Source of the DNA: Candidatus Heimdallarchaeota archaeon
GTDB taxonomy: Archaea > Asgardarchaeota > Heimdallarchaeia > JABLTI01
Direction: 5' to 3'
DNA length: 64,000 nucleotides
NCBI GenBank assembly: GCA_019056785.1
Contig: DXJV01000087.1
Span: forward strand, 1-64,000
A program made the position numbers and the translations under genes. The notes beneath the pieces were generated by a model that saw only the letters and a list, made by a program, of their open reading frames with translations, was not told where the DNA came from and did no database searches. This document shows positions 1,526 through 3,393 of the stretch, one piece after another; position 1 is the first letter of the stretch; each line of letters begins with the position of its first letter.

Positions 1526-2332
1526 ATGGAAGAATTCCAAGTAAAACGAACAATCAAGCGGCTGGAGATCAGCATCCAAACGCCAATAGCAAAAACCGGG
1601 AATGGAGCAGTGGCAGGGGGGAAGGTGAATAATTTGATGCTGATAGGAACAACCAAAGGAGAGAAAGGAAAAGAAGGAAAAAAATATGTCGTGAAAGGAT
1701 TACGAGGATGGCTAAACCACGCAATGATGGCACTGGCAAAAGAAATGGGAGTAGAAGTATGCCATACTTCGGAGAAAACAGAAAGCCAGAAAGGAGAGCC
1801 TTTACTGCCAGAAGGATTTCATGCGGCAGGAAAGTGCCTTGAAAACGGGGAGGAGTGCATAAAACACCGGCTGATGGGATCATTTGGCAAACAGTCAAAG
1901 CTAAAGTTCGAACCGGTGGTCATCACATCGAAAGCTTGCAAAGGAAAAGAGGACGAAGAGGTTCAGCAAATGCACATCGCAACTGAGGTAAGAAACGCGT
2001 TAGCCTTTCATACAAAAAAGGCGATACAAGACTTCGGCGAGCGCTACTTCGCAGGAACATTTACTCTAAGAATTGAGTTCAGAACAAAACTGGAAGCGGA
2101 AGAATTGGGTTTCCTATTGAAAAGCTTACTCTACGCTCCAGAAATCGGGCTCGGAGCAGCAGTGAACAATGGGGCAGGAAAAATGAAAATACTCAAAGTC
2201 GCCTTGCAAGAGGTCGTAAGGGAACGAACATTCGATCAAAAAGGAAGAGTAGTAGAAAGGGAGCGGGTGCGCAACCTCTGGAAAGAAATGCAGGAAGGAT
2301 TGAAAGCATGGCCGAAAAAAGTAAGCGCTTAA
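1526..2332 (+). CDS. cas7: Cas7-group RAMP protein (Csm3-like backbone subunit)
   Basis: RAMP layout: beta1 'LEISIQTPI', helix 'GLRGWLNHAM', Cys/His cluster (VCH..GKC..CIKHRLMGS), 'SKLKF' strand, thumb 'EVRNAL', C-terminal G-rich loop 'GLGAAVNNGAGKM'. Confidence 0.8.
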   Translation: MEEFQVKRTIKRLEISIQTPIAKTGNGAVAGGKVNNLMLIGTTKGEKGKEGKKYVVKGLRGWLNHAMMALAKEMGVEVCHTSEKTESQKGEPLLPEGFHAAGKCLENGEECIKHRLMGSFGKQSKLKFEPVVITSKACKGKEDEEVQQMHIATEVRNALAFHTKKAIQDFGERYFAGTFTLRIEFRTKLEAEELGFLLKSLLYAPEIGLGAAVNNGAGKMKILKVALQEVVRERTFDQKGRVVERERVRNLWKEMQEGLKAWPKKVSA

Positions 2333-3393
2333 GACTCATCGGAAAATTACTAACACCAATAGTGATAGAAAAACCAACGTTCTACATCAAAGGGTGTAGA
2401 GTAACGATAACAAAAAAAGCAGAGGAAAAAGAAAATGGCAGATTTGCCTACCCGGAAAAATTGTTTTATGGAAAACTGGTCAAAGATAGAAGAAGGCCTC
2501 CAACAGTAAAAACATGCTTTCAAGGATTCGTGGTAGTGGACTGCCCAGGAACAAACAATCAAGCAAAGAAAAAATTGCAGTGGTTCTTTGGCTTGGACGG
2601 TTTGGGAAGACAGCAAAACGAAGGCATGGGGAGAATTCGCTGGTTGCAAAAAAAAGAAGTCGCCTACGTGAAAAAAGAGCCGCCGAAGAAAAAACTCCGG
2701 ATAAGAAAAGGATTGGGCTACTACCCAAAACCAATGGTTCGTGCAATAACCGCACTCCTCCTGCATGACTTTGTGCACACAGAAAAACACGACAGCAAGA
2801 TCTACCACGAGGTGGAAATAACTGACGAACTTATGAGAGAAGCATGCAAAAACCACCATACGAGTGTGAATCGAAACGAAAACTGGCTCATACCAATTAT
2901 CCAGAAATACGATAGATTAGCAGCACTCATCAATAGAAAAAAACCACTAAGAAAAGAGAAACGATACGACTACGAAAATGGAGCAATAAATTGCAAACAA
3001 ATAGCAGAGTTAATAACTGAAAAACAAAAATCGGCTAACGCACTTTATAACTACATCTACTACGACAAACAATTCGCAAGGTTCTATGAGTCAATAAACT
3101 ACGCAAACAACAGTAGCCTAAGAAAACACCTCCTTCTAGCAGTAAACCTATTAATCAATGATTTTAAAAAGGGAAGACTGGTCATCAAAAATAACAAAGT
3201 AATGATAGTTTCTTCATCGGCAAAAGATAAAGAAGAAACCAAAAAATTCTTATCTAAGCCAAAGGTGCTGAAACGCATCTACCCGCCGAAAAAAGGGGCA
3301 GAAAGCAAAATCGCTGCCCTCCAGGAACGGCCTGTGGAGGAGAAAAACCATCCGAAAAACACAGAAAAAAGCCACTTGCGGCGGGATACCTAA
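2308..3393 (+). CDS. cas5: Cas5-like RAMP fused to a Cas10-type (circularly permuted) HD nuclease domain
   Basis: N-terminal 'LIGKLLTPI' and G-loop 'GLGRQQNEGMGRI'; then ALLLHDFVH, HH, YDRLAA and a distal SLRKH helix equivalent to the SLxDH of Cas10/Csm1. Overlaps cas7 by 25 nt. Confidence 0.75.
   Translation: MAEKSKRLRLIGKLLTPIVIEKPTFYIKGCRVTITKKAEEKENGRFAYPEKLFYGKLVKDRRRPPTVKTCFQGFVVVDCPGTNNQAKKKLQWFFGLDGLGRQQNEGMGRIRWLQKKEVAYVKKEPPKKKLRIRKGLGYYPKPMVRAITALLLHDFVHTEKHDSKIYHEVEITDELMREACKNHHTSVNRNENWLIPIIQKYDRLAALINRKKPLRKEKRYDYENGAINCKQIAELITEKQKSANALYNYIYYDKQFARFYESINYANNSSLRKHLLLAVNLLINDFKKGRLVIKNNKVMIVSSSAKDKEETKKFLSKPKVLKRIYPPKKGAESKIAALQERPVEEKNHPKNTEKSHLRRDT
3263..3391 (+). ncRNA. Candidate structured RNA (or ssDNA hairpin element) overlapping the 3' end of cas5-HD
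   Basis: Stems read directly: AGGTGC/GCATCT (3263-68/3275-80), CCCGCCG/CGGCGGG (3282-88/3379-85), GGGGCAG/CTGCCCT (3295-3301/3314-20), CAGG/CCTG and CCTCCA/TGGAGG (3318-40). A-rich loops; G-U pairs favour the + strand. Confidence 0.45.

Follow-up and report, generated by a model that had tools for sequence, protein, structure and literature searches.

A probable two-gene ARAMP effector cassette, an array-less relative of type III CRISPR systems, in an Asgard archaeal genome

Introduction

Asgard archaea carry a miniature relative of the type III CRISPR systems that was reportedly named ARAMP by Makarova, Wolf, Shmakov, Liu, Li and Koonin in 2020 (CRISPR J 3:156). Here we describe a cassette of two genes, encoding a Cas7-like protein and a Cas5-HD fusion, close to the start of contig C49 of a metagenome-assembled genome from the Heimdall group of Asgard archaea; "the window" below means the first 64 kb of this contig, the whole stretch that was analysed. 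The cassette is probably an ARAMP effector, an array-less relative of type III CRISPR systems, and we propose an RNA-based mechanism for it. The pair is trailed by a conserved, covarying structure on the sense strand, which overlaps the tail of the second open reading frame (ORF).

The passages on ARAMP in PMC8730458, and in PMC12669027 with its supplement, present it as Asgard-specific and derived from type III, with loci that contain neither arrays nor adaptation modules, and in both papers whether ARAMP uses RNA is stated to be unknown (PMC8730458; PMC12669027). A preliminary description of the window, made from its sequence, had noted that derived Cas5/Cas7 modules are reported from Asgard genomes, and in this it was right, the modules being ARAMP (PMC8730458, PMC12669027). 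Short descriptions of the kind name HNH and PD-(D/E)xK nucleases and give most loci a distinct Cas1. In the 2025 CRISPR-Cas classification ARAMP is a miniature type III derivative, and use of RNA would make it a new CRISPR type.

The two proteins of the cassette

The assembly (G000) amounts to 2.87 Mb in 102 contigs and is 82.5% complete, and contig C49 begins 1.5 kb upstream of the cassette. Including its RNA-like element the cassette occupies about 1.9 kb, the upstream gene for a regulator of 58 amino acids (aa) being extra, and this is about the smallest form of the ARAMP kind. The cas7-like and cas5-HD ORFs share a 25-nt overlap. The parts of the cassette are:

1526-2332, plus strand: cas7-like gene P0001 (268 aa), a Cas7-like RAMP backbone subunit with a putative zinc site, assigned from its AlphaFold (AF2) fold and profile matches
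2308-3393, plus strand: cas5-HD gene P0002 (361 aa)
2308-2685, plus strand: Cas5-like single RAMP domain, residues 1-126 of the fusion, assigned from VIA-wide matches
2725-3216, plus strand: Cas10-type circularly permuted HD nuclease domain, residues 140-303 of the fusion, assigned from VIA-wide and PADLOC matches and motifs
3259-3390, plus strand: structured RNA-like element, a 5' hairpin followed by a 7-bp closing stem around three inner helices

Searches of P0001 and P0002 with Pfam and NCBIfam gave no match above threshold, and PADLOC returned weak Csm3 matches for P0001 (E 1.4e-3); PF03787 is present in many of the Cas7-like homologs. The AF2 model of the Cas7-like protein, built on an alignment of 25 homologs, has a mean predicted local distance difference test score (pLDDT) of 84 and a predicted template modelling score of 0.83. 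Foldseek matched it to 174 PDB chains at E <= 1e-3, the best 50 of which are Cas7-family subunits or Cas7-repeat effectors, with the type VII Cas7 8z4j_J at the top (E 5e-9). VIA-align gave Z 13.1 against the type IV-A3 chain 8rc2_L (root-mean-square deviation, rmsd, 3.5 over 178 aligned residues), Z 13.0 against the Sulfolobus Csm subunit 8bmw_H of SsoCsm, Z 12.7 against type VII Cas7 and Z 10.7-12.2 against Csm3 chains. Searched against PDB sequences, the family profile likewise matched type VII Cas7 (E 5e-5) and Csm3 of M. jannaschii (4qts_C, E 5e-3). By its predicted model, the product of the gene at 1526-2332 has a Cas7 fold, closest to the Cas7 proteins of types IV, III and VII.

The G-rich loop of this protein, GLGAAVNNGAGK, holds three glycines (G210, G216 and G218) that are invariant in 26 homologs. 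Residues C79, H80, C104, C111 and H114 are also invariant, a pattern that suggests a zinc site; in alignments its CxxH part falls on Cys-rich segments of Csm3 and of type VII Cas7. The loop after strand 1 reads GGKVNN, and the homolog alignment contains no conserved Asp or Glu at residues 20-36; judged by these residues, a loss of target-RNA cleavage is plausible.

The model of the Cas5-HD protein (pLDDT 79) consists of a beta-rich domain at residues 1-126 and a helical domain at 140-303, joined by a conserved basic linker, KKLRIRKGLG, and followed from residue 320 by a disordered tail with pLDDT below 50. The G-rich loop of the first domain, GLGRQQNEGMGRIRW, keeps G100, G106, G108 and W112 in all 25 homologs. 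Its top matches in a VIA-wide search of 48,161 PDB representatives are Csm4, Csf3 and type VII chains of Cas5 size at Z 6-7.5, among them 9g9a_G of a Csm complex (Z 7.5, rmsd 4.6, 119 aligned), 7xfz_B of a type IV-A complex (Z 7.3) and 8yhd_G of a type VII complex (Z 6.0). A Cas5-like RAMP is the best reading of this predicted domain rather than a proven identity, and the family profile of the fusion found no match among PDB sequences up to E 10.

The second domain is more distinctive. Its invariant residues in the 25 homologs are H153-D154, H161, H183-H184, D202 and H274, the last within SLRKH274, and the alignment contains no conserved His ahead of the HD motif. A circular permutation that places HD first and a lone His last is characteristic of the HD domain of Cas10 (PMC3150331), and this is the order found in the fusion. 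Two VIA-wide matches only cover residues 140-303 and both are Csm1/Cas10, namely 6ifk_A, matched at Csm1 residues 2-231 (Z 7.6, rmsd 4.1, 148 aligned), and 6mua_A (Z 7.3). Furthermore, positions 5-114 of the PADLOC Cas10 model match residues 144-277 of P0002 (E 6e-4); this model matches only the HD part, and only at the cassette locus. The 361 residues are accounted for by RAMP domain, HD domain and tail, and contain no GGDD and no Cas10 palm or cyclase domain.

In ESMFold2 co-folding the Cas5 N-domain docked onto Cas7 at 0.69 (best control 0.00), a mark that is reached by 58 of 80 solved complexes and by two of 110 mismatched pairs. The runs share at least 75% of their contacts, with partner pLDDT of at least 78. 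This predicted interface supports binding of Cas7 to the Cas5 domain, although the pass may reflect likeness to the similar Csm3-Csm4-like complexes that have already been solved. The motifs of both proteins are under purifying selection.

Most of what the preliminary description had read from the letters is borne out by these data. The two overlapping plus-strand genes lie at 1526-2332 and 2308-3393 as it had them; its Cas7 call agrees with the fold of the predicted model in both Foldseek and VIA-align; the RAMP G-rich loops that it noted are present in both proteins, with invariant glycines; and the Cas7 loop does read GGKVNN, with no acidic residue conserved at 20-36. Its Cas5::HD fusion is supported as a RAMP/Cas5-like N-domain joined to a permuted Cas10-type HD domain, and the order HD..HH..D..SLxxH, which it had assigned to the Cas10/Csm1 type, is invariant at every motif residue and has Csm1 as its best fold. 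The structural comparison that it had proposed yielded both the RAMP/Cas7 folds and the match to the HD domain of Csm1.

Comparison with described systems

The cassette fits the already named ARAMP kind. It is found only in Asgard archaea, combines a diverged Cas7 with a Cas5 that is nearest to type III, is associated with a predicted nuclease, and forms a locus without an array or an adaptation module on a contig that extends only 1.5 kb upstream. It departs from the short descriptions of ARAMP in that its nuclease is an HD domain fused to Cas5 and in that no Cas1 is detectable in the genome, where a Pfam Cas1 search found none, a model that the "distinct" Cas1 of ARAMP could escape. It also differs in its AbrB regulator, its LAGLIDADG and helix-turn-helix (HTH) neighbour and its conserved 3' RNA-like element. 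A literature search for a Cas5-HD fusion in Asgard archaea found no report. What is new for this window is not the kind, which is known, but the 3' element, the conserved divergent AbrB gene, the frequent LAGLIDADG-HTH neighbour and the fold model of Cas7 with Cas5.

HRAMP of Haloarchaea, said to have been described by Makarova et al. in 2019 (FEMS Microbiol Lett), is similarly an array-less miniature derivative with diverged Cas5 and Cas7 proteins plus nucleases, but it belongs to another lineage and has other accessory genes. The passage on HRAMP in PMC8730458 gives it as only distantly related to ARAMP.

With the type III-A Csm complex the cassette shares the Cas7 fold, a CxxC-type metal site as in Csm3, a Cas5-like RAMP and the HD domain of Cas10 permutation, for which residues 2-231 of Csm1 are the best structural match. 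In contrast to Csm it has no Cas10 palm or cyclase, Cas11, Cas6 or array, its HD domain sits on the Cas5 homolog and not on Cas10, and the Cas7 loop expected to match the catalytic one of Csm3 has no conserved Asp. Type VII provides the best profile match by sequence for Cas7 (E 5e-5, about 23% identity in the structural alignment) and also has a minimal effector backbone of Cas7 and Cas5; it uses the beta-CASP nuclease Cas14 and CRISPR arrays, whereas the cassette has an HD domain fused to Cas5 and no array. Neither Cas14 nor an array lies at the locus, although no genome-wide search for Cas14 was made. A passage in PMC8730458 describes type IV-C, with which PMC13676074 is reported to deal as well, as having a Cas10-like large subunit that keeps the HD domain. 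Like the cassette, type IV-C is derived from type III by reduction, with a Cas10-type HD as the sole nuclease on a Cas7/Cas5 backbone, but it retains the large subunit, Cas11 and crRNAs (CRISPR RNAs) from arrays, and the cassette is without a large subunit.

Distribution and decay

Comparison of gene neighbourhoods, another check that the preliminary description had suggested, leaves Cas7 and Cas5-HD as the sole constant pair over 22 loci: Cas5-HD is present in all 22 and Cas7 in 21, and no other gene is common to all. In a profile scan of 400 Asgard genomes the cas5-HD fusion occurred in 40, with a patchy distribution concentrated in four families, up to six cassette matches per genome and many C-terminal fragments with stop codons. 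All 30 loci from named genomes are Asgard-type, under Heimdall-, Hod-, Borr- and Thorarchaeota labels; one of the 30 is labelled Bathyarchaeia, and a genome search places its source in the window's own genus. The source names given for the homologs agree with this range. A set of 1.84 billion representative proteins yielded only 152 matching clusters, mostly fragments, with C-terminal ones in excess. A search of IMG/VR viral contigs yielded no relative of the Cas7.

The genome itself holds a second intact cassette pair on contig C65, 40% identical and with its motifs kept, as well as two 3' remnants of the cassette on C47 and C80. A gene of 263 aa beside the C47 remnant was considered as a decayed Cas7 and ruled out, being an FMN reductase. 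In the set of 1.84 billion proteins, P0232 (981 aa) and P0237 (1468 aa) match positions ~26-98 of the RAMP profile nine to ten times each, and by these matches may contain repeated RAMP-like units.

A conserved structure at the 3' end of the cassette

The structured element lies inside the disordered C-terminal tail of the cas5-HD ORF. As a single sequence, positions 3255-3400 fold at -44.7 kcal/mol (z -3.4). The six orthologs of the element have a mean column identity of 81%, and the hairpin GGTGCTGAAACGCATC is invariant, third codon positions included. RNAalifold on these six sequences gives 28 pairs in five helices, with compensatory changes in 14 of the 28. In the alignment 93.5% of the cells are paired, compared with 38-48% when the partners are slid, and the observed covariation was reached by none of 500 shuffles; both tests favour the structure in that it was derived from the same alignment. 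The element contains an invariant G.U pair as well as further G.U pairs, which point to the sense strand. Identity at the three codon positions is 0.55/0.68/0.23 in the HD domain, compared with a flat 0.39/0.37/0.27 in the tail.

Two covariance models, R1 and R2, place the element 3' of cas5-HD and on the right strand in every cassette tested in the genus, and also locate it after the remnants on C47 and C80 of the same genome and in the genomes G081, G088 and G091, with at least 15 of the sites not used for training. A genome-wide search with R1 returned only the window's own copy, the paralogs being recovered in smaller searches and with the broader R2. Rfam on positions 1-8000 of the window gave chance-level rows only. 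Other cassette subfamilies have different conserved blocks downstream of cas5-HD, and in Ca. Borrarchaeum a block of ~130 nt is common to four paralogous loci and is followed by unrelated sequence.

These data make the element at 3259-3390 a sequence that may be the missing RNA partner of the cassette. A constant, covarying 3' element is a concrete candidate for that RNA, and it turns the open question of whether ARAMP uses RNA into one that can be tested.

An RNA-based mechanism and its alternatives

For the cassette as a probable ARAMP effector we infer RNA binding, a target and nuclease activity along the following lines. Copies of Cas7 would polymerise on an RNA and the Cas5 domain would cap one end; the RNA held would most likely be the transcript of the element at 3259-3390, with its invariant 5' hairpin serving as the handle for Cas5 or Cas7. 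Cleavage of target RNA by the Cas7 subunits is improbable, since no acidic residue is conserved in the loop expected to match the one with the catalytic Asp of Csm3. An engaged complex may use its HD domain to degrade or nick single-stranded DNA, by analogy with the HD domain of Cas10, and cyclic-oligoadenylate signalling would not be expected because there is no palm domain. The role is probably one in defence or in conflict between mobile elements, since the distribution is patchy, multi-copy and prone to decay.

A more general proposal, which we advance tentatively, is that ARAMP is RNA-guided, each cassette encoding a scaffold RNA over the 3' end of cas5-HD in the way that omega RNA or reRNA overlaps the end of tnpB. 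This scaffold would be the assembly platform for the Cas7 filament and the Cas5-HD cap and would direct the Cas10-type HD nuclease, and the 3' remnants would be surviving RNA genes. If true, ARAMP would be a CRISPR-like effector that needs no array, and by the 2025 classification would merit a type of its own.

Several observations weigh against the cassette as an RNA-based ARAMP effector. No stretch of the element is obviously variable and guide-like in this subfamily, and when the element and two paralogs were searched against the whole genome no complementary target was found, the best non-self match being 16 nt (32.2 bits) and within the range of the shuffled controls (mean 30.7, maximum 36.2 bits). 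In every ortholog the reading frame continues uninterrupted across the element, which means that the tail may be translated as well. The Cas5 call is based on middling Z scores of 6-7.5, with Cas6 C-domains tied at 6-6.5; the published short descriptions of ARAMP, with their HNH, PD-(D/E)xK and often Cas1, name no HD fusion; and the genome's own CRISPR arrays could supply crRNAs in trans.

The alternative that survives best, though unlikely, is that the element acts in cis within the mRNA, stabilising the 3' end, signalling processing or termination, or insulating the promoter of the elongation factor 2 (EF-2) gene downstream, and that the proteins act on another nucleic acid or without a guide. 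It would account for the placement of the element within the ORF, where in every ortholog its end coincides with the stop codon, for the scarcity of variable guide-like sequence and the failure to find a target match, and for a downstream gene that begins within ~30 nt. It accords poorly with the retention of the element in remnants stripped of cas7 and of most of cas5-HD (C47, C80, G081, G088 and G091). Furthermore, the element trails cassettes regardless of the gene downstream, unrelated cassette subfamilies each have a conserved 3' block of their own, and there is no T-run on the sense strand.

Loading of the complex in trans with crRNAs from arrays, which would make it an accessory or degenerate type III-like effector, is quite improbable. 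In a repeat scan that covered every contig, C49 gave no CRISPR array, but arrays of two repeat families (37-nt and 30-nt, both ending in TTGAAAT) were detected at contig ends on C30, C63, C68 (both ends) and C98. "Array-less", the term used in the preliminary description, consequently holds for the locus and the window and fails for the organism, and the genome-wide search that it had recommended went against it on this point. On their assembled sides the arrays adjoin genes other than cas, ordinary metabolic ones in the flanks on C30, C68 and C98; the arrays on C30 and C63 have near-identical leaders.

Trans loading gains from the presence of these arrays and from the absence of Cas6, Cas7 or Cas10 elsewhere in the 82.5%-complete assembly, in which Pfam models for Cas1, Cas2, Cas6, DevR/Cas7 and RAMP and the PADLOC model for Cas10 found no other cas gene. 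The statement that the window has no Cas10 palm and no cas1, cas2 or cas6 extends, for these profile models, to the assembly. In G084 the LAGLIDADG gene of the orthologous cassette is followed at a distance of 545 nt by a one-spacer mini-array of the 37-nt family (locus L043, G084:C25, 12945-13058), in which a repeat and a degenerate repeat enclose a spacer of 40 nt.

Sister genomes, which hold canonical Cas1 and type III RAMP loci, bear directly on the matter. The same repeat families adjoin canonical Cas1 there, so the arrays most likely belong to ordinary systems missing from the bin, probably unassembled here. G082 and G083 alone have canonical type III RAMPs, and the cassette is present in genomes both with and without them; it has a conserved RNA-like element of its own; and PMC12669027 and its supplement treat ARAMP loci as unlinked to arrays. 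The preliminary description had held that a complete type III locus and array in the genome, with crRNAs that load into the complex, would tell against it: the arrays are there, but no canonical cas genes were found in this assembly. Taken as a whole, its interpretation stands for the folds, the permuted HD domain and the missing palm, adaptation genes and array at the locus. Its non-catalytic Cas7, a non-CRISPR RNA in the complex, for which the element at 3259-3390 is a candidate, and DNA cutting by the HD domain are plausible; the arrays give some ground, though little, to crRNA loading in trans.

Slightly less probable again is that the cassette serves a mobile or homing element as its RNA-guided arm, with a 3' scaffold RNA that would read into flanking DNA as a guide, as in TnpB and IscB, and with mobility provided by a LAGLIDADG-HTH protein or, in other ARAMP loci, by Cas1. 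The former is represented in the window by a truncated gene:

2-214, minus strand: N-terminal 70 codons of the LAGLIDADG and HTH gene "f2", ~530 aa when complete, cut by the contig start

This ORF is 57% identical to residues 1-70 of the f2 protein beside the orthologous G084 cassette (tblastn), and a full copy in the same genome, P0117, has two LAGLIDADG-type motifs, a match to PF14528 (E 5e-7) and a weak HTH_3 match. In nine of 11 loci of the genus f2 lies beyond the AbrB gene, divergent from cas7. A mobile element would be consistent with the multi-copy, patchy distribution and its many 3' remnants; with the several f2 copies (C16 twice, C47, C49, C65 and C88), inside which both cassette contigs break; with a candidate RNA that overlaps the 3' end of a nuclease ORF; and with the ~130-nt block of Ca. 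Borrarchaeum that gives way to unrelated sequence in four paralogous loci. However, the LAGLIDADG gene is also found without a cassette, several genomes of the genus keep the EF-2-adjacent locus in synteny, and IMG/VR viral contigs yielded no relative.

A housekeeping function in RNA processing or translation, suggested by the adjacent EF-2 paralog and nearby tRNA-processing genes, is extremely unlikely and was rejected, because the adjacency seen here and in G082, G084 and G086 is confined to one orthologous locus of one genus, the neighbours being unrelated at the 19 other loci, and because 360 of the 400 Asgard genomes lack the family, which is multi-copy where present and often decayed.

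Neighbouring genes and promoter region

The remaining features around the cassette are:

284-1186, minus strand: HEPN-like protein, 300 aa, with RNDLAH as Rx4H motif
1236-1412, minus strand: AbrB/MazE-type SpoVT-AbrB DNA-binding protein, 58 aa (PF04014, E 3.7e-9)
1413-1525, no strand assigned: divergent promoter region, read directly from the sequence
3409-5643, plus strand: EF-2 paralog directly after the cassette (TIGR00490, 664.6 bits)

An AbrB gene is divergent from cas7 in the orthologous loci, with 60-73% identity in G082, G083, G084, G085 and G019 and 42% identity in G091, and its product is a likely regulator of the cassette. In the promoter region a TATA-like sequence, TTTATAAATA at 1471-1480, overlaps a 7-bp inverted repeat, AATAGTA-N9-TACTATT, at 1477-1499. 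This repeat is a presumptive operator, at which the divergent AbrB protein would repress the operon by binding over the TATA box.

The HEPN-like gene has a weak match to Pfam HEPN_RiboL-PSP (E 4.7e-4), below the curated cut-off, and tblastn recovered no homolog from the other fetched loci or from the rest of the genome. Only this genome has the insertion, which separates AbrB from f2; orthologous loci have no HEPN gene, AbrB being directly followed by f2. Together the AbrB/MazE-type and HEPN-like genes (284-1412, minus strand) resemble an antitoxin-toxin pair.

The f2 family has at least six copies in G000, at 6205-7878 and 8326-10176 on C16, 91206-92900 on C47, 59344-60951 on C88, 2-214 of the window (C49) and the end of C65, the two cassette contigs that break inside f2. 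The C88 copy heads a cluster that encodes a 664-aa protein, a winged HTH protein and a PD-(D/E)xK nuclease, and clusters of this type adjoin cassettes in G082, G086 and G090; the PD-(D/E)xK gene lies in the cluster beside the paralogous cassettes of G082 and G086.

In canonical EF-2 the diphthamide His stands in an H-R-G context. The paralog beside the cassette reads HTDPAHTG in the diphthamide region, and its 664.6 bits fall below the TIGR00490 cut-off of 738; a second EF-2-like gene, 33% identical, lies on C47. Synteny of cassette and EF-2 paralog is found within the genus only, and the sister-genome contigs examined for a cassette-free EF-2 locus break inside the EF-2 gene.

Some cassettes of Ca. 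Borrarchaeum and of one further family directly adjoin a large DEAD/DEAH helicase, which hints at helicase-coupled variants or defence islands. Helicase-linked cassettes are found at loci L055 and L056 of Ca. Borrarchaeum weybense and at L059 and L061 of G397, the helicase being either a DEAD/DEAH protein of ~1,300 aa upstream or an adjoining helicase with an MrfA Zn-binding domain together with a protein of 1,300-1,470 aa.

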